Shown here in pieces: positions 14,395 to 64,000 of a stretch of 64,000 nt of DNA. Origin of the DNA: a virus. The stretch lies in the UHGV virus genome UHGV-0010228; one strand, given 5' to 3'. Every line of letters begins with the position of its first letter. Position 1 is the first letter of the stretch. The translations under genes and the position numbers were made by a program. Under the pieces are notes generated by a model. The model was not told the origin of the DNA. It made no database searches and saw nothing but the letters and a program-made list of their open reading frames with translations.

Positions 14395-14536
14395 ATCCTA
14401 AATGCTTGGCTAATTTATGAGTAATATGTGTTAACATTTCCCTTATAGTAATAAAAAATGCATTTAGAAATTAAATATTTATTTCTTATAACTCAAGACA
14501 AGCAATGTTTTAAACACTCCAGATTAATTCACGTTA

Positions 14537-14577
14537 AAATAACTAGGATAGACATATGTCTATCCTAGTTATTTTTT
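14537..14577. terminator. bidirectional terminator between convergent genes (AACTAGGATAGACA-TATG-TCTATCCTAGTT)
   Basis: 14-bp perfect stem flanked by an A-run and a T-run. Confidence 0.8.
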
Positions 14578-37649: not shown

Positions 37650-37813
37650 AATTATATAATCTCCTTTCTATAGTTATAATCTATATATAATATAAAATAC
37701 TATAAATTAATATAATAATATCTATAGTATAGAATAATTATATAATATAATTATTCTATACTATAGATATTATTATATTAATTTATAGGTTATAATAGAG
37801 AAAGTAATAGAGA
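37566..37813 (-). repeat. right arm of the ~248-bp inverted repeat (includes the palindrome copy at 37709..37779)
   Basis: See left arm. Confidence 0.85.
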
Positions 37814-38734: not shown

Positions 38735-38740
38735 TATAAT

Positions 38741-38775
38741 AAATAGAATTACTCATATGAGTAATTCTATTTATT
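38741..38775. terminator. 32-nt perfect palindrome/terminator (AAATAGAATTACTCATATGAGTAATTCTATTT)
   Basis: Self-complementary sequence after the stop at 38734. Confidence 0.6.
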
Positions 38776-38870
38776 AATATCCTTTATTTTACCTTATAAT
38801 ATCAACATTCTTATAATATGTTACATTTTGTCATGGTAATTTTATTAATTAATATAAAGGAGGTATTTGT

Positions 38871-43090: not shown

Positions 43091-43141
43091 AATTACGGTA
43101 TATTCTATATATAGAATATACCGTAATTTCTTTTTTTTTTC
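43091..43141 (+). terminator. rho-independent terminator (ATTACGGTATATTCTATAT/ATAGAATATACCGTAAT followed by T12). Identical copy at 45781..45830.
   Basis: 18-bp perfect stem plus T-run. Confidence 0.85.
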
Positions 43142-45780: not shown

Positions 45781-45830
45781 AATTACGGTATATTCTATAT
45801 ATAGAATATACCGTAATTTCTTTTTTTTTA
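45781..45830 (+). terminator. second copy of the ATTACGGTATATTCTATAT hairpin terminator
   Basis: Identical 18-bp stem plus T9. Confidence 0.85.
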
Positions 45831-45893: not shown

Positions 45894-46424
45894 ATGAAAA
45901 GAATCTCTACTATGGAAGACCTTCGCGAGTTTGCAGATGAAGTAAATACAGTCATCCCAGCTCTGAATGCGGACAAGGAATGTGGTAACGTATATTATGA
46001 TACCGACATAATAGAACAGTGTAGTCTTATAATAGACTATACTGATGAAGAGCACGTTAGTGCTCTGAAGAAGATAGATGAAATTGCTAAGCATCAATTT
46101 CATCTATCTTCTGGTCTGGAGTTGATTCTCCAGATACGGGAATTGTATCAGTTGCGTCGTATTGGTGCACCTGATACTGGGGAGTATGATTACTCCTGTG
46201 GGGCCGAAATGATAATATGTGAACAGGTCCTCAGTACTGCTGAGGCGGCTGAGAAATCTACCATTGAGCAGCGCTGGGGACTTGTTCGACAGGCGGGTGT
46301 TGATATGGAGAAATATTACCCAGTCATCAGCGATGGAAGCCGCTGGGGTGATTATGAGGAGAACGCCAGTGACCTCGCCCAAGTGATAACTGATATTTAT
46401 TTAAAGGGATTATCCCTTAAATAA
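45894..46424 (+). CDS. GC-rich moron: hypothetical 176-aa protein of unknown function (ribosome-binding site and both flanking terminators present)
   Basis: RBS TAAGGAGGAATA. Local GC about 45% versus about 28% nearby. Bracketed by terminators at 45781..45830 and 46441..46470. Confidence 0.65.
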   Translation: MKRISTMEDLREFADEVNTVIPALNADKECGNVYYDTDIIEQCSLIIDYTDEEHVSALKKIDEIAKHQFHLSSGLELILQIRELYQLRRIGAPDTGEYDYSCGAEMIICEQVLSTAEAAEKSTIEQRWGLVRQAGVDMEKYYPVISDGSRWGDYEENASDLAQVITDIYLKGLSLK

Positions 46425-52500: not shown

Positions 52501-53007
52501 ATAGCTGGTGGTATTGATACTGGTCTTTATTATTCTACAAACGGTAAAGTATGGACTCAATCTAATATAACTAGTGGAGATTTTAGATCTGTATATAATG
52601 CTAATGGTATATGGGTAGCTGGTAGTGATAGTGATAATGGTCTATATTATTCTACAGATGGTAAAGTATGGACTCAATCTAATATAGATAATGGTAGTTT
52701 TAATACTGTATATTATGCTAATGATATATGGGTAGCTGGTAGTAGTGTTAATAAAGGTCTTTATTATTCTACAGATGGTAAATCGTGGACTCAATCTAAT
52801 ATAACTAGTGGAGATTTTAGATCTGTATATAATGCTAATGGTATAATTATTGCTGGTAGTTATAGTAGTAATGGTATATTTTATTCTACAGATGGTAAAT
52901 CATGGATTCAATCTAATATAAATAGTGGAGATTTTTATACTGTATATAATGCTAATGGTATATGGGTAGCTGGTAGTATTGATACTGGTCTTTATTATTC
53001 AGAATAA
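46546..53007 (+). CDS. giant (2153 aa) multidomain tail fibre/adhesin. N-terminal anchor, two YVTN-type beta-propeller-like regions, two arrays (about 10 and about 12) of BNR/Asp-box-like repeats. C-terminus ...GLYYSE.
   Basis: RBS GAAAGGAG. Collar NIVKGKTIFGVEGTGIP. Repeats such as GIQPDGKYLYTVAKVDNTTDKLSQYNAETGALV and LYYSTDGKTWTQSNITTGHFSAVYNTTGIWIAG. Confidence 0.8.
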   Translation: MPWFPTCGGVDTSDANVTPEDVLEGKIVYSHNGPVVGTIPSLPEKTWIPGPEEQVIPGGHYIAGTQTIKGDPNLYPENIVKGKTIFGVEGTGIPVEFNDPTFIEKLCVSDFKGKVDFSKDSEYFYTYGTSIINKHNSTTGEVIWSQSISDDTKKIYSNLYITPDDLLIYYGSKNGYLNSIIADSGISHLSVKVLDTTKSVEYIKGIENYKGSTFSLLLFVPNTTVIGRVDFIDTSTNNIETITIPSSYSIDVDDKDIYYYCNSSSPRKICKICTDSADNYEIETGTINSYGIQPDGKYLYTVAKVDNTTDKLSQYNAETGALVRSVNVDVNTRDNCSLLITDSLSEYIYLQNTRTIYRYSTDLLLNYANNPFLFTDGTVSSAVDSASVDSNGEYVYVSYLSEDTSELYKYKQVFGSIYPLENPDPYINIDRIIKRKKDTYKTYETPVEIWDDEYDSEIDSISCTDDGHYVYICTQNNGFIKMNSVNKKIIWSYNDGMSGYVVVDHNDKYVYVATNSALTKLDASNGNVVISLSDYARSRTAAYSIQNMTITDDNEYLVYINNNSSSASSSKIVKFKTSDMSVKWEKTPHTNYINQLDLVSKTGDIYFNKSSQIPIETDYILPFTGGVNNVVYFNSKYLLLPNKTFITNSETNTTEFTYYLGDTLNIAYMEKHTISTDGMNTNFSDYTITKIVASSYVCIIYVKGIDNASLTESETSLNKYYYTYDGVNWSEGSFGLYCPTSNIINCSNTFIYSASDKSTYNKLFSSYDGINWTENTNYTDTYTNGTVWGLGYVNSRYLLVSNILQYSTDFKTFSTATIASLPSETAVGENFANKYGEIHCVYIYSRYYLACADGIYYSSDLNTWTKCTFTYPTSADFPSELSYPLLMTNYSNYIYIIESASGNTAEISNYVRSIYITSTSQTSFNVTNIKAAPLLSETSSTSTLFVTGGCVSDNAIAGLYYSTDGKTWTQSNLTTGLFSDVCNFDIWVAGSSDDGLYYSIDGKTWTQSNITTGHFSAVYNTTGIWIAGSSIFDSKGLYYSTNGKTWFQSNITSGGFYTINYANDIYLACGEGLYYSTDGKTWEKTTVSGGYLTSGGFRNAYYADAMWVVCSNDDYCSYYSKDGKAWAQCEPAVEEDVFCNIVYYSNKSIWVAGSEQSNGLQYSTNGMSWTQSNISTGIIRTVCYGNNIVIAGGYNTGIYYSTDGKTWTQSNTTTGSFNLLYYYEDIYIAVSGNNKGLYYSTDGKTWTQSNITSGSFMTSIGESYHPVTTNNNNNYIYCNSRLASFPAVTADDTHSNTKYSIGSLENSKIQQLTYQDTRTTNTTYYGLSTFNNSTAILLGQFEGANQITDNYAYSTDSGATWTGAHMPKKGEWIHVGKLMSKYIAVCNSSNNLAIYESSDGKSWSQGSITNSNGNALANNMISINNDENDVKIKVITSPLISSFAIIVYTTIGINVEGYYVSSSLSTGSAFKVQNFSSNMTSTPLCAINDTSQKCMFLGWSNNGKFMYSDDMLLSLMNGDYYTEVTSSESISNWDMYSEITGVKLSDTQYLVSMQPTSSSSLVKVGLLDTSANTLTFRASTWYNGRFVAPANGKLYALNTYSVNGNSGGGKFTSITNYDTTNTVKDDVLPSDLSSSISKNDKTYTTLCSSGTNLITVINGEPYAYYTKNPLVISGGDDRYIRAIDFLTGNTIWSFSLSYAANGIYVSDDKKFVYATVNGNSSSANLYKYNINATNLSSMKYSTNSYSSAIFGNGDKIFTVKSSNGGILAAYDPEYLTNDYSLTGANDTSTGQEYGRCLTYDSAGDYIYAGTYMNTGKGHLHKYKLKEIEYEKIARVYKTTTTGEDTEGKVWTQSNINSGDFYTVYYGNSIWVAGSISGKGLYYSTNGKVWTQSNITSGDFRSVYNANGIWVAASDSDNGLYYSTDGKVWTQSNINSGYFYTVYYDNSIWVACSGKGIFYSTDGKSWTQSNINSGDFYTVYNANGIWIAGGIDTGLYYSTNGKVWTQSNITSGDFRSVYNANGIWVAGSDSDNGLYYSTDGKVWTQSNIDNGSFNTVYYANDIWVAGSSVNKGLYYSTDGKSWTQSNITSGDFRSVYNANGIIIAGSYSSNGIFYSTDGKSWIQSNINSGDFYTVYNANGIWVAGSIDTGLYYSE
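49405..50320 (+). repeat. tandem ~120-bp coding repeats (first BNR-like array of the giant gene)
   Basis: Periodic ...TATTATTCTACAGATGGTAAAACATGGACTCAATCTAAT... Confidence 0.75.
52081..53004 (+). repeat. tandem ~120-bp coding repeats (C-terminal BNR-like array). Units are about 95-100% identical to those at 41.5-41.9 kb and 62.3-64 kb.
   Basis: The 70-mer TATTATTCTACAGATGGTAAAGTATGGACTCAATCTAATATAGATAATGGTAGTTTTAATACTGTATAT occurs at ~41563 and ~52653. Confidence 0.85.
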
Positions 53008-53164
53008 TTTTATTTTTTAAATCTAAAAATTTATATTTAATATTAACACTTAATTCACACAAAAGAAGAGTTAAAAATATTAATATTTAATGATATTAAT
53101 ATTTTTCTATTAATAAATTTTGTGTTAATTGAGTAAATTCAATTAATAATTCAAATTTGTAATT

Positions 53165-53224
53165 AAAAAAAAATGTAGATGAGTATATATTTTAAAATAT
53201 ATACTCATCTACATTTTTTTTTTA
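53165..53224. terminator. strong bidirectional terminator (18-bp stem ATGTAGATGAGTATATAT/ATATATACTCATCTACAT between A9 and T9)
   Basis: Read directly from the sequence. Confidence 0.85.
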
Positions 53225-53387
53225 TCATCTATATCTCTCTTCATTCTCTATATATTTTTTTCTATAAATTAATATATAGATATTATTATATTAATTTATA
53301 GGTAAATAAGAGAGAAAAATAGTGAATGACTAATATTAGTCATTCACTATTTTAATATATTTAAATATTTATTAGCTTCATCATTAC

Positions 53388-53681
53388 TTATCTTACACGT
53401 TCACGATAATGCTTACTCCGTAAAGTATTTATTATATTATACATTTCATCTTTACTCATGAATCGAAGCTGATTATCTAATTTATACACATAAAATTTTG
53501 TGGTACCTAAATCAGATTTAAACGTTACTGCTGAAAAAGATATACCTTTGACTTTAAAATATTTAATTTTTGACTTGATATTTGGATTTGAGTTAGTAAT
53601 CTCTTTACCTTTTTCTTTAGCTTGAATCTTATAGAATTCGATAAAGAATTTTTCATTAAGAGTAGTCCGTTTAAAAGGTTA
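53388..53681 (-). pseudogene. start-less 96-codon open frame, in frame with and just downstream of the MFDLY-2 stop and separated from it by three in-frame TAA codons. Probable gene remnant.
   Basis: Hand translation gives PFKRTTLNEKFFIEFYKIQAKEKGKEITNSNPNIKSKIKYFKVKGISFSAVTFKSDLGTTKFYVYKLDNQLRFMSKDEMYNIINTLRSKHYRERVR. The only ATG is near its end. Coordinates are +/- a few nt. Confidence 0.2.
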
Positions 53682-53693
53682 TATAATTAATTA

Positions 53694-54704
53694 TTAATTT
53701 GGCGATACTATTAATTTAGATATAATTGCGCTTATTCTGGTATAATGAGATGATAAATATTTAGTTTTTTTGAGAATGAGTTCATGTATATTAGTTCCTG
53801 TACGGCCGTCACCTATGCGTTGTCGTGCAATACGTAATCCGTTGTCATTTTTCATATTAAATTCGTAATTTCCATGATGAGTTTTTAACTCATTCAGTCT
53901 GTTATTGATAAAATTTAAGATAATACCGGCGCTCTTGTTTAATTTCGATACTTTATTTAAAAGTGTAATATAATGTTTTTCAACACTAGGTATCTTACTC
54001 GTTAATAGATTAGATCCTTTATTCGCTATACTATTTTCCAATTTTGTTAATTGAGAATCAATCTCATCATTAGAATAACGACGGCTATTATCCTCATAAT
54101 ATTCTAAGCGATCTTCTGCCTTATCATCTGATATTATTTTTGTTCCTCGTTTAGCTTCGAGAATTATTATATTTAACGCTTCGTTATATCTATTAGCTTC
54201 CACATCTATATAATCTGCTATTCTTACCAAGAATCTCAAATCAATTTCTAAGTCTTTTTTCAATTGATTACCTTTTAATTTAGGGCTTTTATATCTACTA
54301 GTCTTTTCAGGCTCTGGTAAACTTTTAACTATTGGCTTATCTTCTTCTTTACCATCACTTTTTAATCTTCTTCTAGTTATATTCTTACCTCTACCTTTAG
54401 CAAATTTATTAGATGTAGAAGTAGATAAATTATCTTCATCATTTTCTTCTGGATATGGTTCTTCTTCATCTTCTTCTTCTATTGATTTATTTCCTCTATT
54501 TTTAATAAAGTTTTTAACAGATTCCCACGCTTTCTTTATCTTTTTACCTAATTCTCCTAATTTATTCGTTATAGTTTCCCATATTTTCTTTAACCATCCC
54601 CATATAGTACTACCTACATTTTTTACTTTATCTATAATACCTTCATATGCATAATCATTATCTATTATATTATATGATTCTAATGTATTATATAAATCAA
54701 ACAT
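53694..54704 (-). CDS. alpha-helical hypothetical protein, MFDLY family copy 2 (336 aa; N-terminal 36 aa identical to 37910..38734)
   Basis: RBS GGAGGTATTATA identical to copy 1. Confidence 0.65.
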   Translation of the reverse strand: MFDLYNTLESYNIIDNDYAYEGIIDKVKNVGSTIWGWLKKIWETITNKLGELGKKIKKAWESVKNFIKNRGNKSIEEEDEEEPYPEENDEDNLSTSTSNKFAKGRGKNITRRRLKSDGKEEDKPIVKSLPEPEKTSRYKSPKLKGNQLKKDLEIDLRFLVRIADYIDVEANRYNEALNIIILEAKRGTKIISDDKAEDRLEYYEDNSRRYSNDEIDSQLTKLENSIANKGSNLLTSKIPSVEKHYITLLNKVSKLNKSAGIILNFINNRLNELKTHHGNYEFNMKNDNGLRIARQRIGDGRTGTNIHELILKKTKYLSSHYTRISAIISKLIVSPN

Positions 54705-54763
54705 TATAATACCTCCTTATATTATATAATATTAATATAATGTATAACAAAAAAAAAACAAAT

Positions 54764-54785
54764 GAATGACTAATAATAGTCATTC
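54764..54785 (-). promoter_or_regulatory. operator-like palindrome GAATGACTA-ATAA-TAGTCATTC (a copy of 37828..37849 in inverted orientation, preceded by A10)
   Basis: See 37828..37860. Confidence 0.5.
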
Positions 54786-54898
54786 TCTATTCTCTATTAT
54801 AACCTATAAATTAATATAATTATTCTATACTATAGATATTATTATATTAATTTATAGGTAAATAAGAGAGAAAGTAATAGATAGAGTAATGATAGATA

Positions 54899-54997: not shown

Positions 54998-57900
54998 TTG
55001 GCATGGTATACAGCAGTTAATGCACATGATACATCAGATGCTACTGCATCTGATAATGATATTAGAAAAGGTAAAACTGCATATGTTAATAATAAATTAG
55101 TTACTGGTACAATGCCAGAAAAAGCTGCTGCTACATATACACCATCAACGAAAGATCAAACTATAACTAGTGGAGTATATTTAGCCGGAGATCAGACTAT
55201 AAAAGGAGATTCTAATCTCATATCTGATAATATAGTTAGAAAAAAATCAATATTTGGAGTTGAAGGAAATCAAATTCCTATAGAATTTAATGATCAAGTA
55301 AAGATGCTGAGTGGGATTACTCACGAAACTATAACCTATGATAATGAAAAAATATTAACATCTTTTAATAAAAATACCAATGCCGCTGTAATAATGAGCG
55401 CAATTAGATTAAATGATGAAAATTATAATGTAACGAAAGTTTATTCATATAAGATATTATTTACATATTTGTCATTAGATACATATGATGTAGTATCATC
55501 ATCAACATTCATTATTTGTAGATCTAAAATTGATGGTTATGCTGATAGTGATACTGATGAAATAATACAATCTAGAAATAACTTTACTACTACAAATTTC
55601 TTTCCTGTAACTGAAAGACCAATGATAACTAGTATTTCATTAGAAAATGATGGAATAGTACTTGTATCTATGAGAGGAATCAGTTCATACATTGGATCTG
55701 GTGCTAATTTTCAAAATATAGCAAAAATCGATCTGAAAAACGGAAAATTGATATCAACAATGTCAATTCTTGATGATTATGTAAATCATATATCAAATGC
55801 AGTTAATTGTGTGAAAATGATTGATGATAATATTTATATAGATGGTCCTGCAACACAGCCGGGATTAAATTATATAACAGTTGATGGTGCATATTCAATA
55901 TCGCCATACTCATCGGCAATTAATGGATATATATTATATGAATATCATAATGATATAAGCACTGAACCTATACAATATTATGTTGTAACCGAACAATATA
56001 ATTCATCGTTAGGTATATATGAACCAAAACTATCTGAGAAAAAACAGATCCCAGCATATGGTTGGTGTATGGATAGATACTCTAGAATTATGCTTACTGA
56101 TTATCATAATGCTAATGTCTGGGACTATATATGTTATTTTAACGGATATTACTATATAATATTTGGTTTGGCATATGATGATCATTTATTAAGAACTACA
56201 GATTTTTCTAATTTTGATTATATTAGCTTTACTGATGATTTTAAAATTTCATTTTACAGTAATCGAACTGCCATGGTATCTGCTCTTATTTCAGATACAG
56301 TAAATAATAAATTATTATTTTTATGCACTGACGATCATCGTTTTGCTATATATGATGGTACTACTAATAAAACATCATATTTAGCCTTACCATATGATAA
56401 CTATAATACAGGATATAATGGATTTACAACACTTAGAAGTGCGGCATTTGACTATAATAAAACCTTCGTATTTCATTTTGGACAAAATAGTGCAAATTCA
56501 AAAGATTATCCAGATCCAACGAATAACTATATTTTCGTGACAACAAATTATGGATCGTCATACACAGTTATTGACATTAAAGATATCTTTTCAGAAGCTA
56601 TACAAAATCAGCTAAGCGGTTATTCGATTAATTATGGCATTGGTCTTGGATATATAAATGAAGCTTTTTATATATTTTCAACAGCTAGAAATTCTAATTC
56701 ATCGAGTTATAATAGCTATGTTATAATATCTAAATCTATTGATGGACTTAATTGGGAAACACCTACATTAGTATATAATAGCGACACATATTATACAACA
56801 CATTCAAAAAAAAGTATTGCCGGTGATAGTAATAATACTATAGTAATCATAACCACATCAGAACGAAATAATGATGATAGTACAAGAGTAGGATATATAT
56901 ATTCAAGGGATAATGGGGTATCATGGTCATCAATAAATACATTAAGATCTTCTTTTACTGCGAATGGTACTATCGCAACCTCAATTGCATATGGTAATGG
57001 AAAATTTATTGTTACAATTAGCTGTTCTGATGATGATTATGTTAGAATATACTATAGTACAAATGGGTCGTCGTGGTCAAGCACATCTTTATCAATCAAT
57101 AGTGATAAAGAGTGTTGTTATAGAGTTTCGTATTGTAATGATCGCTTTATAATGATGCCATCATGGGGCTATAGATTTTTTTATAGCACAGATGGTATAT
57201 CTTGGACATCATCTGCTGCGCTATATAATAGAGGATCATGCAAAATAACTATAAAACCATATATGCTGACTGATTCTAGATACTCATTGTATTTTAACAA
57301 TTCTTCATATTCTTCACAATATCTTGAAAAGATATTATACATTGTACCGGACTATTGTTCGAGTCTTGGTTGGAGCAGTTATGGTATAAATAAAACGATA
57401 GGAACTCTTGATGGCTCATCGTGGTATTTGTATAAACGTAATGATTCTTTTTCTATTTCAGCTCCTGATTGGTTATCTGATACTTACTATCCTAATAAAA
57501 GTTACGAATGTGATGATGAGAAATCCTTTACAAATAATATTTATATTGGCATGAGTTATGGTACAGACCCAACCTCATCAATATATGGAAAGTACCCATT
57601 TTACACAACTAATGGGCGACAGATATATGCATGGACAGCAATGATTTCTGTGCTTGCTCAGCTTAAATCAATTACTACCAATATGGTTGATTATTTTTGT
57701 GTATTCTATAGCACATATTATAATAAATATTTAATTATACTTACTATATATGATAAACCGAATTCAAAACGTGTTACGTATATGTACTATACCACATCTA
57801 TCGGAACTGCAACTGTAAATAGTTACAATTTTGATTCTGCCGATTTTCACGACAATTTTGTTTCTGCTATAGATATGTCCACTCTTAGTATGTATGAAGA

Positions 57901-59269
57901 ATTAGATATTGGGAAAATTGTCTTTTATAGTAAAACTGGGCTCGCAATTTTTAAATTTAATGCCAATGGAACAGCTATTGATAGTGTATCAATCACAAAA
58001 TTATCTTTTACTGATAATACTATATATAAATACAACAATAAATATTATACATATATTTCATCAAATGATAATATTAAAATTTATGAATCGTCAAATCTTT
58101 CAGATTGGACAACAAAGACTATTTCAGAATGTAATATTTTTAAAATAATAAATCAAGGGGTTGCCTCTTCCAATATTGGAAAGAGTGCTGAAAATTATAG
58201 TTATATGACTCTTGGCAACATTCGCTTATCATTAGGGCTTATTCCATTTAGTGATAAGGGTTATGGTGGCGATGAAATTAACAGTAGTTATAGCAAATCG
58301 ATATCGTCTCCTGGCATATATTTATATGACAGTAGTTCTAATATGGAATATTTAATGTGTATAGATGCTAATTTAATACGAATAGTTCGATCTCAAAAAA
58401 TGAATAATATTGGTGGTGCGCTAGCATCTAATAATTTAGTGCTGTTACATAGTCAAAAAAATAGTAAAAAGGTGCTATACTATATTCATCCAAAGTCTAA
58501 ATCGGGGTATCGAACTTCATTATATAAACTAAATGATGATAGTGATTCATACACAATCATCGACGATTCCCCAAACGATTATATTGATGGCGATGTTATT
58601 GATATATTACAAATATCTGAAACTAGATATATTACAGTAAATAAGCGCAGATTATTATCTACAGCTTTAGGTGTAGAATATGCCAGACCTATGGAATATC
58701 TTATTAATTATTATACTATAAATGAGGGTAAGGCAGATACAAAACAAAATACTATCGCTATATCTGTAAATCCTACTAATTATACATTTACATATTTACA
58801 TAGTATATATTCTAATTCATATATATATACAACATTCTTAAGAAGTGATAATAGGATGATACGATATACTCAAACAAATGATATTGAATCATCATTGACC
58901 GATATACCAGTATCATCTATATCAGGCGTTTCAACATTCGGTGGAGCACTTGTTACTTCGGATTATATATATATAATACGCACAAATAATATTTTACAAA
59001 AGCTATATCGAGGAACCACGTCAATTGGATCATCAATATGGAAATTTACAATTCCACAGACAAATACTAATGAATCATTTATTAAAATTGATATAGATTC
59101 TAGGGGAAATATATGGTGTATTTCACAATATAGAACTGTAATATTAGTAGAGTCAGTAGGCTCTGCATATCTCAAATCTAATAAAACTAATGATCCTGCA
59201 TATATTGCAATAAATAACAGGTCTGAAGAATATAATGATCTATATGATGTTTTTTATATATATGATTAA
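54998..59269 (+). CDS. giant (about 1424 aa) tail fibre/adhesin. Anchor (M)AWYTAV...RKGKTAYVNNKLVTGTMP, collar NIVRKKSIFGVEGNQIP, degenerate Asp-box repeats (YIYSRDNGVSWSS, IYYSTNGSSWSS, FFYSTDGISWTSS). Probable TTG start.
   Basis: RBS GAAAGGAG 7 nt before the TTG. Its N-terminus is homologous to the ATG-initiated MAWYEY and MPWFP paralogues. The tracked ATG at 54917 has no SD and lies inside a hairpin. Confidence 0.7.
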   Translation: MAWYTAVNAHDTSDATASDNDIRKGKTAYVNNKLVTGTMPEKAAATYTPSTKDQTITSGVYLAGDQTIKGDSNLISDNIVRKKSIFGVEGNQIPIEFNDQVKMLSGITHETITYDNEKILTSFNKNTNAAVIMSAIRLNDENYNVTKVYSYKILFTYLSLDTYDVVSSSTFIICRSKIDGYADSDTDEIIQSRNNFTTTNFFPVTERPMITSISLENDGIVLVSMRGISSYIGSGANFQNIAKIDLKNGKLISTMSILDDYVNHISNAVNCVKMIDDNIYIDGPATQPGLNYITVDGAYSISPYSSAINGYILYEYHNDISTEPIQYYVVTEQYNSSLGIYEPKLSEKKQIPAYGWCMDRYSRIMLTDYHNANVWDYICYFNGYYYIIFGLAYDDHLLRTTDFSNFDYISFTDDFKISFYSNRTAMVSALISDTVNNKLLFLCTDDHRFAIYDGTTNKTSYLALPYDNYNTGYNGFTTLRSAAFDYNKTFVFHFGQNSANSKDYPDPTNNYIFVTTNYGSSYTVIDIKDIFSEAIQNQLSGYSINYGIGLGYINEAFYIFSTARNSNSSSYNSYVIISKSIDGLNWETPTLVYNSDTYYTTHSKKSIAGDSNNTIVIITTSERNNDDSTRVGYIYSRDNGVSWSSINTLRSSFTANGTIATSIAYGNGKFIVTISCSDDDYVRIYYSTNGSSWSSTSLSINSDKECCYRVSYCNDRFIMMPSWGYRFFYSTDGISWTSSAALYNRGSCKITIKPYMLTDSRYSLYFNNSSYSSQYLEKILYIVPDYCSSLGWSSYGINKTIGTLDGSSWYLYKRNDSFSISAPDWLSDTYYPNKSYECDDEKSFTNNIYIGMSYGTDPTSSIYGKYPFYTTNGRQIYAWTAMISVLAQLKSITTNMVDYFCVFYSTYYNKYLIILTIYDKPNSKRVTYMYYTTSIGTATVNSYNFDSADFHDNFVSAIDMSTLSMYEELDIGKIVFYSKTGLAIFKFNANGTAIDSVSITKLSFTDNTIYKYNNKYYTYISSNDNIKIYESSNLSDWTTKTISECNIFKIINQGVASSNIGKSAENYSYMTLGNIRLSLGLIPFSDKGYGGDEINSSYSKSISSPGIYLYDSSSNMEYLMCIDANLIRIVRSQKMNNIGGALASNNLVLLHSQKNSKKVLYYIHPKSKSGYRTSLYKLNDDSDSYTIIDDSPNDYIDGDVIDILQISETRYITVNKRRLLSTALGVEYARPMEYLINYYTINEGKADTKQNTIAISVNPTNYTFTYLHSIYSNSYIYTTFLRSDNRMIRYTQTNDIESSLTDIPVSSISGVSTFGGALVTSDYIYIIRTNNILQKLYRGTTSIGSSIWKFTIPQTNTNESFIKIDIDSRGNIWCISQYRTVILVESVGSAYLKSNKTNDPAYIAINNRSEEYNDLYDVFYIYD

Positions 59270-59353
59270 ATATATTATATGCAATAAACTTATATATAAA
59301 AATGATATTTCAAATCTCAAAAAATGTAAATTATTAATGGAGGTATTATTATA

Positions 59354-59710
59354 ATGGCTGATACTAGAAAGTTTATCAGAACAGATGCTAATGAACTCAT
59401 CACATTTACGCATTATATGCCATTTGATGCAGTTCATGGTATGAAGAAGACAGAAGCTGAACTTCTTGAATCTGGTGGTTATCTTGTAGACGATATTCCA
59501 ACAGCAACAGATGTTCCAGAAGGAAAGATAGCTTCAACTCACTATAATCCAACTAAGGGATTCTATTTCACTTATGAGGATGCTCCAGAACCAGTTGTTG
59601 AAGATTCTCCAGAAACTTTAACTGCGAAGGTAGCTGCTCTTGAAGAGTCAAATGAAACAATGGCAGAACTTCTTGACCAGATACTTATGGGTGAAGTTGA
59701 AATTGCTTAA
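59354..59710 (+). CDS. small acidic protein, possibly XkdW-like (often found after tail-fibre genes in Firmicutes phages)
   Basis: RBS TGGAGGTA. 118 aa. Pro/Glu-rich middle and a helical C-terminus (LTAKVAALEESNETMAELLDQIL). Confidence 0.45.
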   Translation: MADTRKFIRTDANELITFTHYMPFDAVHGMKKTEAELLESGGYLVDDIPTATDVPEGKIASTHYNPTKGFYFTYEDAPEPVVEDSPETLTAKVAALEESNETMAELLDQILMGEVEIA

Positions 59711-59726
59711 AGGAGGAAATCTTAAT

Positions 59727-59840
59727 ATGGCAAAGTATCTTGCAATGAGAATCAAGGCTGGAAAGCTTGATAAGGATGAAGTATATGCTAGATATCCTAA
59801 GTATAAGGGTGCAATCGAAGCTATACTCGCCGAAGAGTAA
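59727..59840 (+). CDS. 37-aa protein (MAKYLAMRIKAGKLDKDEVYARYPKYKGAIEAILAEE), possibly XkdX-like
   Basis: RBS AAAGGAGGAAAT. The tracked ORF starts upstream, inside the previous gene. Confidence 0.4.
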   Translation: MAKYLAMRIKAGKLDKDEVYARYPKYKGAIEAILAEE

Positions 59841-59883
59841 AAAAAAAAGAAAACGAGAGGTAAGCATTGCTTACCTCTCTTAT
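59840..59883. terminator. bidirectional terminator (A10, then GAGAGGTAAGC-att-GCTTACCTCTC)
   Basis: 11-bp GC-containing stem between convergent genes. Confidence 0.8.
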
Positions 59884-59888
59884 ATTTG

Positions 59889-61016
59889 CTACTCTGTAGC
59901 TGCTAACTCCAGAGCTTTTGTAATGGTTGTATCAACCATTATCTGTCTAAGCTCTGGAGTTATACCCGCTCCAGCGGCCTTCTTGTGGCCACCTCCGAGC
60001 GGGTTGAATGCCTTAGCTATTATGCTAAGGTCGATATCGTCTCTCTCAGTCCTGAGACTGATGGCGTTGTCGCCAATAATTGCGACAAAATCCAGCTCAG
60101 GATAAATTGCCATGAGCTCATGCCCCACATCGTTCATGAGCTTTTCCGCGAACACTGCGCGGAACTTGTACTCGTGGCCATTAATAGTCGCACTACGTTC
60201 GAAGCTCTTCTCGAGCTTCTTTTCAACGTAGTCAGCGTCCTGTTTAAGAACATTGATTACGAGTGATTTATAAATTCCATCGTGAATATTGTTGAGACCA
60301 TATATTATTAAATCATTCATACTTCTTGGTGGTTTATTGATCTCATATGTTGCATATATGAGATCAATAAAGTTTCTACCGACATCACCACCCAAATGAT
60401 ACACCGTATTTAGCAATTGGGCCGAGTGATAAATTTTTGAATTTAGCCCTAATCCAGCAAACGAAATATTGTTTACGGGATCTTTTTTGAATTCATATGT
60501 ATCATACATACGAATCATTTCGGAAACTAAGTCTCCGATTTCAAAGAAGATGTCGATATTCTCAATATCAACATATCGTAAAACCCCCCATACCAGGCTT
60601 GTAGCGCATATCGGCTCACCTTCGTATGATGAGAGGATGCAACTGTTTTCCTCCCACCACATATTGTCCCAGTCTACCTGGGTCTGGTGGTGATCTATCC
60701 AGATCACCTTATCCAGATGACCTGAGTTACTCAGGAGATCATATGCCTCCTGAGTCAAATTTAGATCTGTTACTACTAACAGATCTAAATCTGCGCTCTC
60801 AAATAATTCGAGAGCTTTTTCAAGGCTCTCGATTAATGGCTTGCCTGGGTTTGATCTATCCCAGGTATGAGTTTTTTCCATGAAAGCCTGTTTAAACAGG
60901 CTTTCGCACCCATATCCGTCAAGATCTGTATGCGAAATAGTATGGATTCTTTCTGGTGGATTCTCCACCATTTCAATAAGCTTTGACGAATATATATTCA
61001 TTTCTCTGTAATCCAT
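59889..61016 (-). CDS. DHH/DHHA1-family phosphoesterase (NrnA-like nanoRNase/pAp phosphatase fold)
   Basis: 375 aa. DHH motif VIWIDHHQTQ. DHHA1 motif GGGHKKAAGAG near the C-terminus. Asp-rich metal-site segments HTDLDGYGC and VVTDLN. The gene is a mosaic of GC-rich (~45%) and AT-rich segments. Confidence 0.8.
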   Translation of the reverse strand: MDYREMNIYSSKLIEMVENPPERIHTISHTDLDGYGCESLFKQAFMEKTHTWDRSNPGKPLIESLEKALELFESADLDLLVVTDLNLTQEAYDLLSNSGHLDKVIWIDHHQTQVDWDNMWWEENSCILSSYEGEPICATSLVWGVLRYVDIENIDIFFEIGDLVSEMIRMYDTYEFKKDPVNNISFAGLGLNSKIYHSAQLLNTVYHLGGDVGRNFIDLIYATYEINKPPRSMNDLIIYGLNNIHDGIYKSLVINVLKQDADYVEKKLEKSFERSATINGHEYKFRAVFAEKLMNDVGHELMAIYPELDFVAIIGDNAISLRTERDDIDLSIIAKAFNPLGGGHKKAAGAGITPELRQIMVDTTITKALELAATE

Positions 61017-61110
61017 AGTTTTATCCTCCTTATAATAACTATGTAGCTTTAACTTTTCAATATAATAATATATTTATTAAAAAAAAACAAATTTCGGTAT
61101 ATTATCCACC

Positions 61111-61128
61111 CCAAAACACGATAATAAA
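61111..61128 (+). promoter_or_regulatory. conserved fibre-gene upstream motif CCAAAACACGATAATAAA
   Basis: See 43155..43172. Here it directly abuts the RBS. Confidence 0.45.
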
Positions 61129-61145
61129 ACGGAGGTGATTAAATT

Positions 61146-64000
61146 ATGGCAGATGAACCTGTAATGTATGATAAAGTATATTATATCCATACTAAATTAA
61201 CAGAAAAATTTCCTATTATTCCATACCGTACAGTTGGTATGATAGATACTGATGATGCTGTATACTGTATGTGCCAAGTAACATCATCAACAGGAAATTA
61301 TGAGATATATAAATTAGATATTCCAAGTGATGGATTAACTCCGATATATGATAGAACCTTAACTTGGAAATCTGCCGCAGTTTTAAGTTATTCAGATTAT
61401 GGTTATATCTATCATTATCAAAAGCCTAATTATTATAGAATGAACGATAAAGATGCTGATTATAAATATTTTATTGTAACCGGTAATAAATTATATTTTA
61501 GCGATGACCCTGTTGGTCCTTTTACTAAAGCAACTGGAGATTTTCTGACTAGTACTGCTCCATCAAATATAGTTTATGCATATTCTAAATATTGTATAAT
61601 TTATCAATATAGATTATACTCTTCAACTGATGGAGTTATTTGGGAAATAGCTAATGCAAATCTCTATGATAAGACAAATTATCAGGGATTATTTATACTC
61701 AATAATCAATTAGTTGCTGCAGTTGTTGGTCTTGAATATTTATATATATTAATCGAAACTACTGGATCGTTACCTGGAACGTGGAAAGAGTATAAATATT
61801 TAAACGACTCTGTTGAAGGTGCATATAAAGGTAATTATATAGAAAGCGTTAATGATTTACTACTTAATGAAATATGTGGTGAAGATATAATTGTAATTAG
61901 TAAAATGTCAAATAATTATTTTAGTTATCAATTTCACCTGGTAAATTTTAAAGATGGATTACCAACAGGTAGTAGCGGGGAGAATTTTTATTCACCACAT
62001 GTTACAGATGCTAATAATGGGTTTTCATTAATTCATTCATCTAAAAGTTATAAGAATGAATATTTCTTATGTTCAGAATCTAAATTGAATGATGTTAAAC
62101 CTGCATTATCAATATATTCAAAATTAGATGCACATAACCAATTTACAGATGTAAGTACTGATACATCTAGTTCTAGTAATAATCTATATACGTTTCAGTT
62201 AGATACGCCTACAGGATTTCATGTATCTAAGAATTGTGATTATGTAATATCATATCCAACTGATTCATCGGAATATATTAAAGAAAAACGAATTATTGAT
62301 GTTGATCCATATATATTTGTAGCTTGTAGTTATAGTGATAAAGGTCTTTATTATTCTAATGATGGTAAATCATGGATTCAATCTAATATAACTAATGGTA
62401 ATTTTCATAATGTATATAATGCTAATGGTATGTGGATAACATGTAGTTATGATAATAATGGTGGTAAAGGACTATATTATTCTACAGATGGTAAAATATG
62501 GACTCAATCTAATATAACTAGTGGAATATTTCATACTATATATAATGCTAATGGCATATGGGTAGCTGGTAGTTATAGTGATAAAGGTCTTTATTATTCT
62601 ACAGATGGTAAAGTATGGACTCAATCTAATATAACCAGTGGTAATTTTAATGATGTATATAATGCTAATGGTATATTTGTAGCATGTAGTTATAGTAGTA
62701 AAGGTCTTTATTATTCTACTGATGGTAAAACATGGACTCAATCTAATATAACTAGTGGTAGTTTTTATGATGTATATAATGCTAATGGCATATGGATTGC
62801 AGGTAGTTATGGTGATAAAGGTCTATATTATTCTACAGATGGTAAAACATGGACTCAATCTAATATAACTAGTGGTAATTTTAGTGGCATATATAATGCT
62901 AATGGCATATGGGTAGCTGGTAATTATAGTAATGGTCTTTATTATTCTACAGATGGTAGAGTATGGACTCAATCTAATATAACCAGTGGTAATTTTAGAC
63001 GAGTATATAATGCTAATGGCATATGGGTAGCTGGTAATTATAGTAATGGTCTTTATTATTCTACAGATGGTAGAGTATGGACTCAATCTAATATAACTAG
63101 TGGTAGTTTTTATGATGTATATAATGCTAATGGCATATGGATTGCAGGTAGTAATAAAGGATTATACTATTCTACAGACGGTAGATCATGGACTCAATCT
63201 AATATAACTAGTAGTAATTTTATTGACATATATAGTACAGTTAATATTATGGTTGGAGGTATTGGTAGTAATGGGCTTTATTATTCCACAGATGGTAAAT
63301 CGTGGATTCAATCTAATATAACTAGTAGATATTTTGAGAATATATATAATGCTAATGGTATATGGGTAGCTTGTAGTGGTAATGGTATTTATTATTCTAC
63401 AGACGGTAAATCATGGAGTCGTGTTTTAAACAAAAGTATTATTAATTCTATATATAATGCTAATGGTATATGGGTAGCTTGTAGTGATAATCATGAAGGT
63501 ATATTCTATTCTACAGATGGTAAAGTATGGACTCAATCTAATATAGATGAGGGATATTTTTATATTGTATATAGTGCTAATGGTATATGGGTAGCCGGTA
63601 GTTCTAATAATATTCTTCCTGGTGGTCTATTCTATTCTACAGATGGTAAAGTATGGACTCAATCTAATTTACATGATGATGCTTTTCATACTGTGTATAA
63701 TGCTAATGGTATATGGGTAGCCGGTAGTTGTAGTAAAGGACTATATTATTCTACAGATAGTAAAACATGGACTCAATCTAATATAACTAGTGGATATTTT
63801 CATACTGTATATAATGCTAATGGTATATGGGTAGCTTGTAGTAGATATGGTCTTTATTATTCTACAGATGGTAAAACATGGACTCAATCTAATATAACTA
63901 GTGATGATTTTAATACTGTATATTATGCTAATGGTATATGGGTAGCTTGTAGTTATAGTAATAATGGTCTATATTATTCTACAGATGGTAAAGTATGGAC
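61146..64000 (+). CDS. 3'-partial tail fibre protein (>951 aa). A distinct N-terminal domain (MADEPVMYDKVYY...), then at least 14 BNR/Asp-box-like 40-aa repeats running off the window edge.
   Basis: RBS ACGGAGGTGA. The frame was checked by eye and has no stop up to 64000. It is absent from the ORF track only because there is no stop in the window. Confidence 0.7.
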   Translation, partial: MADEPVMYDKVYYIHTKLTEKFPIIPYRTVGMIDTDDAVYCMCQVTSSTGNYEIYKLDIPSDGLTPIYDRTLTWKSAAVLSYSDYGYIYHYQKPNYYRMNDKDADYKYFIVTGNKLYFSDDPVGPFTKATGDFLTSTAPSNIVYAYSKYCIIYQYRLYSSTDGVIWEIANANLYDKTNYQGLFILNNQLVAAVVGLEYLYILIETTGSLPGTWKEYKYLNDSVEGAYKGNYIESVNDLLLNEICGEDIIVISKMSNNYFSYQFHLVNFKDGLPTGSSGENFYSPHVTDANNGFSLIHSSKSYKNEYFLCSESKLNDVKPALSIYSKLDAHNQFTDVSTDTSSSSNNLYTFQLDTPTGFHVSKNCDYVISYPTDSSEYIKEKRIIDVDPYIFVACSYSDKGLYYSNDGKSWIQSNITNGNFHNVYNANGMWITCSYDNNGGKGLYYSTDGKIWTQSNITSGIFHTIYNANGIWVAGSYSDKGLYYSTDGKVWTQSNITSGNFNDVYNANGIFVACSYSSKGLYYSTDGKTWTQSNITSGSFYDVYNANGIWIAGSYGDKGLYYSTDGKTWTQSNITSGNFSGIYNANGIWVAGNYSNGLYYSTDGRVWTQSNITSGNFRRVYNANGIWVAGNYSNGLYYSTDGRVWTQSNITSGSFYDVYNANGIWIAGSNKGLYYSTDGRSWTQSNITSSNFIDIYSTVNIMVGGIGSNGLYYSTDGKSWIQSNITSRYFENIYNANGIWVACSGNGIYYSTDGKSWSRVLNKSIINSIYNANGIWVACSDNHEGIFYSTDGKVWTQSNIDEGYFYIVYSANGIWVAGSSNNILPGGLFYSTDGKVWTQSNLHDDAFHTVYNANGIWVAGSCSKGLYYSTDSKTWTQSNITSGYFHTVYNANGIWVACSRYGLYYSTDGKTWTQSNITSDDFNTVYYANGIWVACSYSNNGLYYSTDGKVW
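62320..64000 (+). repeat. tandem ~120-bp coding repeats (at least 14 units), near-identical to those in genes 39919 and 46546
   Basis: Periodic GGTCTTTATTATTCTACAGATGGTAAA(R)(Y)ATGGACTCAATCTAATATAAC... It produces the spurious antisense ORFs 62472..62741 and 62823..63086. Confidence 0.85.

Follow-up and report, generated by a model that had tools for sequence, protein, structure and literature searches.

A hairpin-rich, multi-allelic gene for an NrnB-like DHH/DHHA1 phosphoesterase between fibre-like genes of a gut jumbo phage

The window analysed here, a stretch of 64,000 nucleotides from the virus genome UHGV-0010228, comes from an uncultured AR9/PBS1-like jumbo myovirus of the human gut (~235–256 kb), whose closest cultured relative, judged by the terminase, is AR9. 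On the minus strand, positions 59889..61016 hold a coding sequence with an ATG start for an NrnB-like DHH/DHHA1 phosphoesterase of 375 aa. A sequence-only reading of the window had singled out this open reading frame and quoted the motifs DKVIWIDHHQTQ and GGGHKKAAGAG, and the frame and both motifs were confirmed; the gene was further characterized by Pfam and PHROG matches, a structural model, its GC content at third codon positions (GC3), its MFE and six alleles. Both large neighbours lie on the opposite (plus) strand. Upstream is a fibre-like protein (54998..59269; 1423/1450 aa, 1423 aa as called in public assemblies) with a weak BNR_2 match, and downstream is a second one of >950 aa (61146..64000), which runs off the window, measures 964 aa in L001 and has a faint match to DUF6242_C; its N-terminal ~350 codons are conserved and the remainder is variable. 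The description of these neighbours as fibre genes is plausible, but the annotation behind it, BNR-like in one case and DUF6242_C in the other, is weak.

Between the upstream fibre-like gene and the DHH gene are two small plus-strand genes. The acidic p118 (59354..59710, 118 aa; PHROG 20961/3834, function unknown) is 99–100% identical in all the phages, with a synonymous divergence (pS) of 0–0.25, and is the anchor adjoining the variable cassette, while the basic p37 (59727..59840, 37 aa) is 95–100% identical in all of them. A bidirectional intrinsic terminator with an 11-bp stem (59855..59879; −21.8 / −23.5 kcal/mol, z −5.7) separates the convergent p37 and DHH genes, and its U-run is present on the DHH side only. 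The 5′ region of the DHH gene (61017..61060, minus strand) contains the Shine-Dalgarno sequence AAGGAGG 8 nt upstream of the ATG, a small hairpin that pairs the start codon, and a sigma-70-like site, TTGAAA-17-TATTAT, of a kind not found above chance (6 found vs 9.3 expected). AR9-type relatives of this phage transcribe with their own RNA polymerases. Running against its neighbours and equipped with a ribosome binding site and a strong intrinsic terminator, the DHH gene is a probable transcription unit in its own right. It had been described as inserted at this place, which is not upheld: all relatives that were identified carry it in syntenic position. These relatives came only from ENA, Logan and NCBI assemblies: a DNA similarity search against 50,697 phage records gave no match, and p118, as the conserved neighbour, had no counterpart in scans of IMG/VR or of the JGI metagenome contigs.

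As the first reading had proposed, the gene encodes an intact, stand-alone DHH/DHHA1 enzyme with all catalytic residues present. The residues of DHH motifs I–IV (DxD, D, DHH, D) are invariant in an alignment of 61 homologues and in all six alleles: the metal-binding aspartates of motif I, D31-L-D33 (60918..60926, minus strand), D84, motif III, D108-H109-H110 (60687..60695, minus strand), and D172. Motif III lies within a conserved 8-bp hairpin, GGUGAUCU/AGAUCACC, which is helix 10 of the consensus structure described below. Also invariant in the 61-sequence alignment is the DHHA1 motif G341-G342-G343-H344 (59985..59996, minus strand), which is followed by only 31 residues and lies within a Pfam DHHA1 match spanning residues 312–358. 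Both Pfam matches score under the gathering cut-offs (DHH, 23.8 bits vs 28.1; DHHA1, 23.0 vs 25.9), as is the case for a divergent member of the family. The identification is nevertheless secure because of the invariant motifs, a profile match to the PDB chain 6mtz and an AlphaFold2 model (pLDDT 92.3) with matching folds. With this model, Foldseek returned 44 PDB matches at E≤0.001, all of them DHH-family or Cdc45 chains, the best being 6mtz, followed by RecJ and NrnA.

The enzyme had been called NrnA-like, and here the evidence points instead to the NrnB (COG2404) branch. The family profile matched 6mtz, from Helicobacter pylori, over its full length at 7.9e-42, and every other PDB chain at 7e-12 or weaker. 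Profile matches to NrnA, CnpB, GdpP and PggH ranged from 1e-7 to 3.5e-4, mostly via the DHHA1 end; among the NrnA-family chains (3.9e-7 to 3.5e-4), 5cet, 5jju, 9wbu and 5j21 aligned over a DHHA1 stretch of only ~25–40 residues, and 8iu7 over most of the profile (9.1e-7). NrnA was not found by a single-sequence search of the PDB. The source databases name the homologues "oligoribonuclease NrnB" or "3′-to-5′ oligoribonuclease B," and the AR9 "Oligoribonuclease NrnB" was the second best viral fold match. No curated NCBIfam NrnB model matched, the sole NCBIfam match being RecJ_archaeal (33.5 bits vs a cut-off of 360). We infer that 6mtz is the H. pylori NrnB, the PDB entry itself naming it an uncharacterized protein of H. 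pylori G27. From sequence and model, then, the protein is classed as a stand-alone two-domain DHH/DHHA1 phosphoesterase of the NrnB branch.

Several architectural features agree with this placement. The protein has both the DHH domain and the GGGH motif that serve as the inclusion rule for NrnB in PMC12709177, and between the last strand of the DHH domain and the DHHA1 sheet the AlphaFold2 model places helices at residues 198–206, 210–222 and 233–269; a long alpha-helical inter-domain region has been described for NrnB (PMC12709177). The conserved C-terminal extension of >100 aa that marks NrnB clade A (Bacillus type, general exoribonuclease) is absent. The tail of only 31 residues after GGGH likens the protein to NrnB classes with a preference for di- and trinucleotides, the short-tailed classes being those that favour short RNAs, and the three NrnB proteins tested so far act as 3′–5′ exonucleases on short RNAs and do not cleave c-di-AMP (PMC12709177). 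By homology, the phage enzyme would bind two divalent metals via D31, D33, D84, H109, H110 and D172, hold its substrate with the DHHA1 GGGH motif and degrade short oligoribonucleotides to mononucleotides, starting from the 3′ end.

Cellular NrnB proteins (Bacillus subtilis YngD, H. pylori NrnB, 6mtz) share with the phage protein the stand-alone DHH plus DHHA1 arrangement and the series DxD, D, DHH, D, GGGH. The short tail after GGGH is shared with the Campylobacterota and compact NrnB classes, and the long inter-domain helices are as in NrnB. In contrast, the present protein is phage-encoded, is 22–31% identical to cellular NrnB over most of its length and has GGGH-KK where the H. pylori chain has GGGH-RN; the hairpins, GC3 and allele swapping reported below have not been described for cellular nrnB genes. 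NanoRNase A, CnpB, GdpP and PggH have the superfamily, the catalytic motifs and the two-domain clamp in common with it (fold E 1e-7 to 1e-5), but NrnA differs in its short linker and 5′–3′ polarity (PMC12709177), and GdpP in its additional PAS/GGDEF and membrane segments. A weak fold match is NrN, the SAM-AMP phosphodiesterase of CorA-type type III-B CRISPR systems (PMC10600005; PDB 9lq9), which shares the DHH catalytic domain and degrades an immune signal, but is about 250 aa long, is a component of host defence and ranked 41 among the fold matches (E 1.5e-4).

The DHH enzymes of other large phages (AR9 NrnB, the Herelleviridae "exopolyphosphatase," and nrnB of the Clostridioides difficile phage AR1086-1) have the same fold, are likewise from phages of Bacillota, and have the same predicted role in nucleotide or second-messenger metabolism (Iyer et al. 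2021, PMC7824862). By tblastn, identity to them is 25–27% for the matches of near-full length, which cover most of the protein, and reaches ~32% in short stretches; in fold alignments it is 11–18%. The AR9 NrnB gene was not located by sequence search and would be at most a candidate ortholog. Whereas the large-phage genes sit among genes for nucleotide metabolism and RNA repair, the present one is between fibre genes. In the three large-phage genes that were tested, RNA structure was not in excess (z −0.6 to +0.7), and GC3 was typical of their genomes.

The anomalous, patchy base composition noticed in the first reading is real, since sliding-window GC was not uniform along the gene. In 200-nt windows, GC was 0.44–0.485 at 59.8–60.3 kb and 0.405–0.455 at 60.5–60.9 kb, with 0.32–0.355 at 60.2–60.6 kb, against a background of about 0.25–0.32. 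The anomaly is in third codon positions: the DHH gene has a GC3 of 0.434, vs a mean of 0.200 (sd 0.066) for 39 genes of the window (z about 3.6), and both C3 (0.219 vs 0.076) and G3 (0.213 vs 0.103) are up. The other GC-rich stretch of the window, at 24.6–31.6 kb, is high in GC1 and GC2 only; its GC3 of 0.17–0.21 attributes that richness to amino-acid composition. Only one other gene of the window, g176 (45894..46424, plus strand), combines raised GC3 (0.40) with extreme excess RNA structure, including a perfect 18+18 hairpin at 46069–46112, and it is 100% conserved across phages that carry different DHH alleles. A host origin of g176 is out, with only two such proteins in 5.8 billion clusters. 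Several explanations of the GC3 signal were discarded: translational selection for C-ending codons, by the equal rise of G3 and C3; accuracy-type codon selection, as invariant amino-acid columns do not have a consistently higher GC3; a strand effect, by the normal GC3 of the remaining minus-strand genes; and a link to hypervariability, by g176, which is GC3-rich yet identical across phages. Among the six DHH alleles, GC3 varies from 0.28 to 0.43 and is raised in all, and it is higher at paired than at unpaired positions (0.32–0.53 vs 0.18–0.33 across alleles). The GC-rich mosaic is the imprint of ~30 hairpin stems with which the coding sequence of every allele is packed, the wobble positions of these stems being enriched in G and C.

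Folding of the coding sequence gave an MFE of −421.8 kcal/mol, with a whole-gene z of −10.7 relative to synonymous shuffles. With local-block shuffles, z was −4.5 to −10.7 in the six alleles, vs −2.4 and −2.8 in controls, and with dinucleotide shuffles, the eight segments had z of −2.2 to −8.4. Among 38 genes (median z −2.1) there were two outliers, DHH (−11.4) and g176 (−12.8). The stability beyond that of its own synonymous shuffles is 95–130 kcal/mol for the allele of the window, and 45–109 kcal/mol across alleles and shuffle schemes. No Rfam covariance model matched positions 58800–61600 with E below 0.45.

Four perfect hairpins were found in the allele of the window, vs 0.02 expected. A perfect 24-nt palindrome (12+12; 60882..60905) encodes ESLFKQAF and is completed by the allele-unique residues F and Q. 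Over motif II (LDLLVVTDLN) lies a perfect 14+14 hairpin (60759..60790; 4-nt loop) that measures 17 bp in the fold; in allele L004 it is retained by the paired changes GAT>GGT (D78G) and GAT>GAC. The third, a perfect 16+16 hairpin with a 7-nt loop (60333..60371), has its 3′ arm (YEINK) in an allele-specific insertion of 3–5 codons, and because this arm is reverse-complementary to the codons for FIDLIY it is recognized as an inverted duplication. The last, a perfect 14+14 hairpin whose 31-nt loop holds a 9-bp hairpin (59904..59962; helices 30 and 31), encodes the C-terminal helix (ITPEL...KALEL) and lies in the segment with the strongest local z (−8.4).

A consensus structure derived from the six alleles has 31 helices, with compensatory changes at 35 pairs, vs 18.1±2.8 in shuffles (0/500) and 5–11 in slid controls; the structure was tested on the same six sequences from which it was derived. 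The covariation term of RNAalifold is slightly unfavourable (+5.08), and template switching also yields compensatory double changes without any selection. The sense strand is more stable than the antisense in all alleles. For the 108 pairs predicted on both strands, however, cells with G-T (35) equal those with A-C (37), so the stem cores are strand-symmetric, which fits hairpins at the DNA level or a purely mutational origin equally well.

The six alleles of the DHH gene are 100% identical within a class across independent samples and 64–79% identical between classes. Their pS of 0.53–0.79 is near saturation, vs 0–0.45 in the fibre flanks and the low values of p118, and their dN/dS is about 0.1. 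L004 and the window are 100% identical in nucleotide sequence at 42.8–49.4, 55.0–59.8 and 61.0–62.0 kb, and 68–80% identical inside the gene, where the divergence runs from about 59883 to 60948; the 5′ region and the first 68 nt of the gene are 100% identical. As ~20 kb of backbone was compared between allele carriers, an identical backbone here means a local and not a genome-wide one. Allele B was identical in 8/8 loci compared, and its protein is recorded on 10 contigs with a varying neighbouring fibre. The edges of divergence are not the same across allele pairs, and the PHI test indicated intragenic recombination (p=0.001). The most variable parts of the protein are surface loops and the inter-domain linker. 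A part for recombination, which the first reading had also suggested, is thus upheld by discrete alleles on near-identical backbones and by the PHI test, and cassette exchange is indicated because the surrounding backbones can be 100% identical. At least six discrete, old alleles have been moved between near-identical backbones by homologous recombination, for which p118, p37 and the terminator serve as anchors on one side, and the promoter-like site, the 5′ end and the fibre N-terminus on the other.

Two other histories of the locus were weighed against this one. The first reading had attributed the GC-rich blocks to a recent horizontal acquisition from a higher-GC bacterium, donor or host, their alternation with AT-rich blocks being due to amelioration that is still incomplete or to recombination, in patches, with sequence of the phage type. 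The outlying GC3, with G3 and C3 both up as in a compositional shift, is what such an import would leave, and the spread of GC3 among alleles can be read as stages of amelioration. The gene also looks like a moron. Morons, as in lambdoid phages, are autonomous promoter-gene-terminator units of deviant composition, and the DHH gene is likewise single, with its own start signals, promoter-like site and strong terminator, set against the surrounding late genes and unlike them in composition. Unlike a moron, however, it is present at the same locus in all relatives and is not a sporadic recent addition, and its unusual composition goes with internal hairpins, in whose stems the excess GC3 is concentrated, and not with a foreign donor. 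The search for a donor also failed. Among ~15 billion proteins there was one 50%-identity cluster, and then a best E of 6e-24 at 31% identity, with nothing between the allele group (60–77%) and the ~30% tier; outside the cluster, identity was at most ~39% over matched stretches among the matches listed. In 185,579 species genomes, near-full-length matches were 22–27% identical and shorter N-terminal segments up to 42%, and representative proteins and these genomes together gave no near-full-length relative above ~35%. The alleles are near-saturated at synonymous sites, yet none is down to the background GC3; the second GC3-rich gene, g176, is an ORFan of the phage group with no donor; and AR9 also has an NrnB-like gene. 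Recent bacterial import is therefore largely refuted as the source of the GC-rich patches, and we consider it very improbable. Even less credible, to the point of being negligible, is that the island of divergence was produced by targeted hypermutation, through a diversity-generating retroelement (DGR) or another local mutator. Sharp-edged divergence of one gene in an otherwise identical background does have that appearance, but the alleles are discrete, each having one and the same nucleotide sequence (100% identity) in independent samples and studies, adenines are not preferentially substituted (A 0.21, C 0.30, G 0.24, T 0.27), the whole 1.1 kb is divergent, indels included, and the edges shift from one allele pair to another. 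The DGR type of mutagenesis is refuted by the absent adenine bias and the identity of alleles across samples.

With moderate confidence, we favour the joint interpretation that the GC mosaic is the footprint of hairpin stems, that at least six old alleles have recombined, that the hairpins are kept for a folded mRNA, and that the product is a functional NrnB-type enzyme. The folded mRNA would matter mainly through its stability against single-strand RNases or through throttled translation of the nuclease, and template-switch (inverted-duplication) mutation may have supplied the raw material for the hairpins. A possible but rather unlikely alternative gives the hairpins no function in RNA and regards them as by-products of template switching or quasipalindrome correction at a locus prone to recombination or stalling. 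On that account they might act in DNA as hot spots of breakage and recombination, which would explain the cassette exchange, and the raised GC3 would stem from GC-biased heteroduplex repair. Several hairpins are indeed perfectly Watson-Crick over 12–16 bp, which RNA function does not need; an inverted duplication specific to one allele forms one of the arms, and amino-acid replacements completed one of the palindromes; the strength and register of the perfect hairpins vary between alleles; and the strand symmetry of the stem cores and the detectable intragenic recombination agree with a mutational origin. A general mutational process, however, does not predict that 2/38 genes are affected, and the helices recur at the same alignment positions in near-saturated alleles, including highly conserved protein segments. 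The sense strand is also consistently the more stable, its consensus being 40 kcal/mol better than that of the antisense, and g176 is hyper-structured although it is fully conserved across the same phages, which shows that the structure is not tied to allele exchange.

A further alternative concerns the selected role of the enzyme and not its fold or chemistry. It would be counter-defence: the enzyme would destroy an immune signal made of nucleotides, or the linear products of that signal (cyclic oligoadenylates, CBASS cyclic oligonucleotides, SAM-AMP, pApA or c-di-AMP), and the allele diversity would come from an arms race against sensors, inhibitors or types of signal in the host; we entertain it only tentatively. 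Between the near-identical phages, just three modules are swapped within the compared ~20 kb, namely this gene and two fibre-like segments of the host-range type, and old alleles on identical backbones suggest balancing or frequency-dependent selection. The variability falls in the surface loops and the linker, which the NrnB literature ties to substrate range. DHH enzymes are known to degrade cyclic oligoadenylates (Sulfolobus islandicus, cited in PMC7824862) and SAM-AMP (NrN, PMC10600005), and the role has been predicted for jumbo-phage DHH proteins (Iyer et al. 2021, PMC7824862). Against it are the failure of the three purified NrnB proteins to cleave c-di-AMP, the weakness of the fold match to NrN, the lack of any match of the phage protein to the PADLOC defence models, and the position of the homologue in other large phages beside rtcB, NUDIX, Metallophos and nucleoside deoxyribosyltransferase genes, that is, genes of RNA repair and nucleotide metabolism. 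At the level tested, the low dN/dS does not point to positive selection, and swapped alleles would also arise by neutral mosaicism where a fibre region is prone to recombination.

A DHH/DHHA1 enzyme in a phage is in itself ordinary, counter-signalling being a role that was predicted for such enzymes before. The movement of old alleles among 100% identical backbones places this one in the same evolutionary regime as receptor-binding proteins, which points to a role in host interaction. More speculatively, and with little probability in our view, DHH and g176 may be "armoured" phage genes, in which near-continuous hairpins, with G/C recruited to the wobble positions, have been selected so that the mRNA survives or evades RNA-directed immunity or single-strand RNases; the threats may include Csm6/Csx1-type collateral RNases, Cas13, toxin endoribonucleases and the sensing of phage RNA. 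If this were true, an enzyme that degrades oligonucleotides or signals would still be made during the immune response, template-switch inverted duplications would be the source of the hairpins, and the exchange of old alleles between phages would keep pace with the arms race. Compositional islands in phages are routinely read as recent horizontal transfer, whereas here the island is explained by dense, conserved secondary structure that is encoded at synonymous sites and, in places, in the amino acids as well; if this is common, it changes how such islands are interpreted. With six alleles that share almost no synonymous sites, the locus offers a natural experiment on what selects mRNA or DNA structure in a dsDNA phage.

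The open reading frame at 59889–61016 (minus strand) encodes a 375-aa protein from an ATG start and carries DKVIWIDHHQTQ and GGGHKKAAGAG. In 200-nt windows, its GC content was 0.44–0.485 at 59.8–60.3 kb, 0.405–0.455 at 60.5–60.9 kb and 0.32–0.355 between these two GC-rich blocks, against a background of about 0.25–0.32. The composition is anomalous at synonymous sites: GC at third codon positions (GC3) was 0.434, where 39 window genes averaged 0.200 (SD 0.066), and C and G were both elevated there. The window's other GC-rich stretch, 24.6–31.6 kb, is high in GC1 and GC2 only. The gene, both motifs and the odd, patchy composition had all been described correctly in the sequence-only reading.

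A repeat search revealed perfect inverted repeats within this DHH coding sequence. In the window allele there are four, their arms 12–16 nt long, as against 0.02 in synonymous-codon shuffles, and an excess was found in every allele, at recurring positions. The whole mRNA folded at −421.8 kcal/mol, compared with −291.8 ± 12.2 in synonymous shuffles (z −10.7). Under a conservative null, with shuffling inside 40-codon blocks and local GC3 preserved, z was −10.7 for the window allele, −9.8, −6.6, −8.1, −4.5 and −9.2 for the alleles of the related phage loci L004, L008, L012, L013 and L015, respectively, and −2.4 and −2.8 for control genes. In dinucleotide-preserving shuffles, eight 141-nt segments of the gene gave z of −2.2 to −8.4, and a control gene of equal GC +0.75 to −2.1. 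The extreme outliers of a 38-gene scan (median −2.1) were the DHH gene (−11.4) and g176 (45894–46424, plus strand; −12.8), exactly the two GC3-rich genes. Unlike that of the window, the DHH genes of three other phages were no more structured than their shuffles (z −0.6 to +0.7).

The RNAalifold consensus of six alleles comprised 31 helices and 246 pairs, with 89.3% of cells paired. Pairs changed on both sides numbered 35; column shuffles gave 18.1 ± 2.8, with none of 500 reaching 35, and sliding the partners by 1–3 columns gave 5–11. GC3 of the DHH gene was 0.32–0.53 at paired and 0.18–0.33 at unpaired positions, the latter nearing background; the control genes gave 0.21–0.22 and 0.16–0.18. 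Because the GC3 excess lies in stems and the helices are conserved, the patchy GC is a trace of hairpin stems and not of amelioration. Unusual features are the saturation of the coding sequence with hairpins, the tie between these and GC at wobble positions, and the swapping of old alleles between identical backbones; no comparable case in dsDNA phages was described in the literature searched, which does not prove that none exists.

The gene g176 encodes a 176-aa acidic (pI 4.4) ORFan, has a GC3 of 0.40 and is the sole other gene combining raised GC3 with extreme excess RNA structure. It holds a perfect 18+18 hairpin (46069–46112). Its protein showed 100% identity between the contigs read (13 by contig look-up and 12 by cluster table), also in phages with a different DHH allele, and only one other relative, 63% identical, was found among 5.8 billion protein clusters. 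The third strongest local structure excess of the window (z −6.7) belongs to a 538-aa gene at 17799–19415 (minus strand), with normal GC3 (0.19) and no family match.

Six allele classes of the DHH gene were found, with 100% nucleotide identity within a class over independent samples and studies and 64–79% between classes. The window and L004, a 223-kb contig from a different sample, are 100% identical in nucleotide sequence over 42.8–49.4, 55.0–59.8 and 61.0–62.0 kb, and 68–80% identical inside the gene. Dense divergence runs from about 59883, directly past the stop codon, to 60948, which leaves the upstream region and the initial 68 nt of the gene identical; in other allele pairs, the edges vary. 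The pS was 0.53–0.79 for the DHH gene (dS 0.9 to saturation, dN 0.12–0.30, dN/dS about 0.1), 0–0.25 for the nearby p118 gene (59354–59710, plus strand; 118 aa) and 0–0.45 for the conserved parts of both fibre genes. The PHI test detected intragenic recombination (p = 0.001), and no adenine bias was seen among the substitutions. Discrete, stable alleles with variable edges mean that old alleles were exchanged through homologous recombination rather than created by hypermutation. Since the only other swapped segments in the roughly 20 kb compared are fibre-like modules, the enzyme falls in the same evolutionary regime as host-interaction genes, although neutral mosaicism in a recombination-prone region could also have produced the allele pattern.

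The region at about 49800–54800, spanning the 3′ part of a 2153-aa gene and a 336-aa gene (53694–54704, minus strand), is unalignable (50–60% identity) between the window and L004, phages that are ~100% identical elsewhere. L004 has different genes there, of 573, 595, 226 and 1843 aa, which indicates a second module swap, adjoining the DHH locus. The downstream fibre-like gene shows a very strong GC skew (0.3–0.48) at about 62300–63500 (plus strand), and its protein differs in length between phages (964–1162 aa). Antisense open reading frames at 62472–62741 and 62823–63086 encode repeated peptide units, which implies that the fibre coding sequence contains tandem repeats.

In all relatives the DHH gene has one position and orientation, the order being a fibre-like 1423-aa gene, p118, p37 (59727–59840, plus strand; 37 aa), the oppositely oriented DHH gene and the next fibre-like gene. 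The p118 and p37 proteins are 95–100% identical in every phage, whereas the genes on both flanks are very variable; p118 is acidic (PHROG 20961/3834, unassigned function class) and p37 basic. The pair appears to be either a conserved recombination anchor or the object of unusually strong constraint. When 1.84 billion cluster representatives were searched exhaustively, one cluster exceeded 50% identity to the DHH protein, and the next best match had E 6e-24 and 31% identity; in the best 150 matches of the cluster-representative search, identity over the matched stretch was below about 40%. In a scan of 185,579 species genomes, the near-full-length relatives, mainly from Campylobacterota, were only 22–27% identical. 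The gene is not a recent import, and the synteny, the lack of close relatives and the GC3 excess in stems leave recent acquisition with amelioration unsupported as the cause of its composition. More distant phage homologues adjoin genes of nucleotide metabolism or RNA repair: a jumbo-phage contig has Metallophos and nucleoside deoxyribosyltransferase beside its homologue, a C. difficile phage has rtcB and a Lysinibacillus phage has NUDIX, whereas the window gene lies between fibre-like genes.

Matches of the protein to Pfam DHH and DHHA1 were slightly below gathering thresholds, and PHROG 4771 ("DHH phosphoesterase") matched at 4.8e-9. In a 61-homologue alignment, the invariant columns were D31, D33, D84, D108-H109-H110, D172 and G341-G342-G343-H344, which coincide exactly with the superfamily's catalytic and substrate-binding motifs. 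The AlphaFold2 model is confident (pLDDT 92.3, pTM 0.87), with a long helical region joining two alpha/beta domains. Its best match among solved structures was the H. pylori protein 6mtz, followed by RecJ/GAN/Cdc45 and then NrnA, with the SAM-AMP phosphodiesterase NrN much lower; the annotated NrnB of phage AR9 was the second best viral fold match. The family profile matched 6mtz at 7.9e-42 across the full length, and NrnA, CnpB, GdpP and PggH at 1e-7 to 1e-4, chiefly at the DHHA1 end. Homologues are labelled "oligoribonuclease NrnB" in their sources, and a 2025 study defines NrnB proteins, which are 3′-5′ exonucleases, by COG2404 membership together with DHH and GGGH motifs (PMC12709177). On these grounds the earlier NrnA-like assignment needs correcting to NrnB-like. 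Among the NrnB-like DHH/DHHA1 proteins borne by phages, the enzyme is new and divergent. In NrnB, a long C-terminal extension goes with activity on long RNA and a short tail with di- and trinucleotides as preferred substrates, and three purified NrnBs left c-di-AMP uncleaved (PMC12709177). Only 31 residues follow GGGH in the phage protein, whose chemistry would, by analogy, be metal-dependent 3′-5′ trimming of short oligoribonucleotides. A counter-signalling role for such phage proteins was predicted in 2021 (PMC7824862); no demonstration was found in the literature searched.

Three observations show that even the protein, in its variable parts, is shaped by hairpin formation. In motif II of the L004 allele, GAT>GGT (Asp78Gly) and a matching synonymous change, GAT>GAC, together keep the stem, and the 24-nt palindrome at 60882–60905 is completed by two residues that only the window allele has. 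In the 16-bp hairpin at 60333–60371, the 3′ arm lies within an allele-specific insertion of 3–5 codons, the reverse complement of the codons before it, and so represents an inverted duplication of the template-switching kind. The hairpins may act as folded mRNA, as suggested by a sense strand more stable than the antisense in all alleles and a sense consensus structure better by 40 kcal/mol. They may also be of DNA-level or purely mutational origin, with which the equal numbers of G-T and A-C cells (35 vs 37; pairs predicted on both strands) and several perfectly Watson-Crick stems are consistent; a general mutational by-product, however, does not fit well with restriction to 2 of 38 genes, helices recurring across near-saturated alleles and a g176 that is structured yet invariant. 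As a working model, hairpins would be supplied by template-switch events and retained by selection on the folded transcript, the benefit possibly being an mRNA that resists single-strand RNases or a nuclease whose translation is throttled.

An 11-bp bidirectional terminator (59855–59879) separates the convergent p37 and DHH genes, with a U-run on the DHH side only. A small hairpin pairs the DHH start codon, and its loop holds the Shine-Dalgarno; a sigma-70-like site was found, such sites being no more numerous here than expected by chance, and an Rfam search gave no matches. Elsewhere, many intergenic perfect palindromes with 17–29-nt arms and zero-length loops (for example 14536–14575, 38737–38776, 43091–43128, 45781–45818 and 53165–53222) exceed ordinary intrinsic terminators in length and perfection. 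Two identical 89-nt perfect palindromes with 44-nt arms (33818–33906 and 37700–37788) are, together with some 18 nt of flanking sequence apiece, inverted copies of each other. They bracket a very AT-rich 3.8-kb segment with two convergent ~600-aa genes lacking family matches, an arrangement that resembles an invertible or swappable module.

The window corresponds to a jumbo myovirus structural region, encoding the large terminase, tail sheath, phiKZ-type virion proteins and baseplate hub, and no tRNA genes. No DNA similarity to cultured phages was found; the terminase is closest to those of the Bacillus phages vB_BpuM-BpSp (35%) and AR9 and PBS1 (32%), and of Staphylococcus jumbo phages. Contigs of up to 256 kb carry the identical DHH protein, and contigs of 223–237 kb carry relatives, the named sources being human gut metagenomes, Hadza samples included. 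The host is probably one of the Bacillota, to judge from the strong Shine-Dalgarno (AAGGAGG) and from the hosts that all relatives have. In the nearest cultured relatives by terminase, AR9, PBS1 and Staphylococcus phage S6, uracil replaces thymine in the DNA, and these phages have their own multisubunit RNA polymerases. By analogy, the gut phage may share these traits, which, if true, would bear on any promoter prediction for the window.
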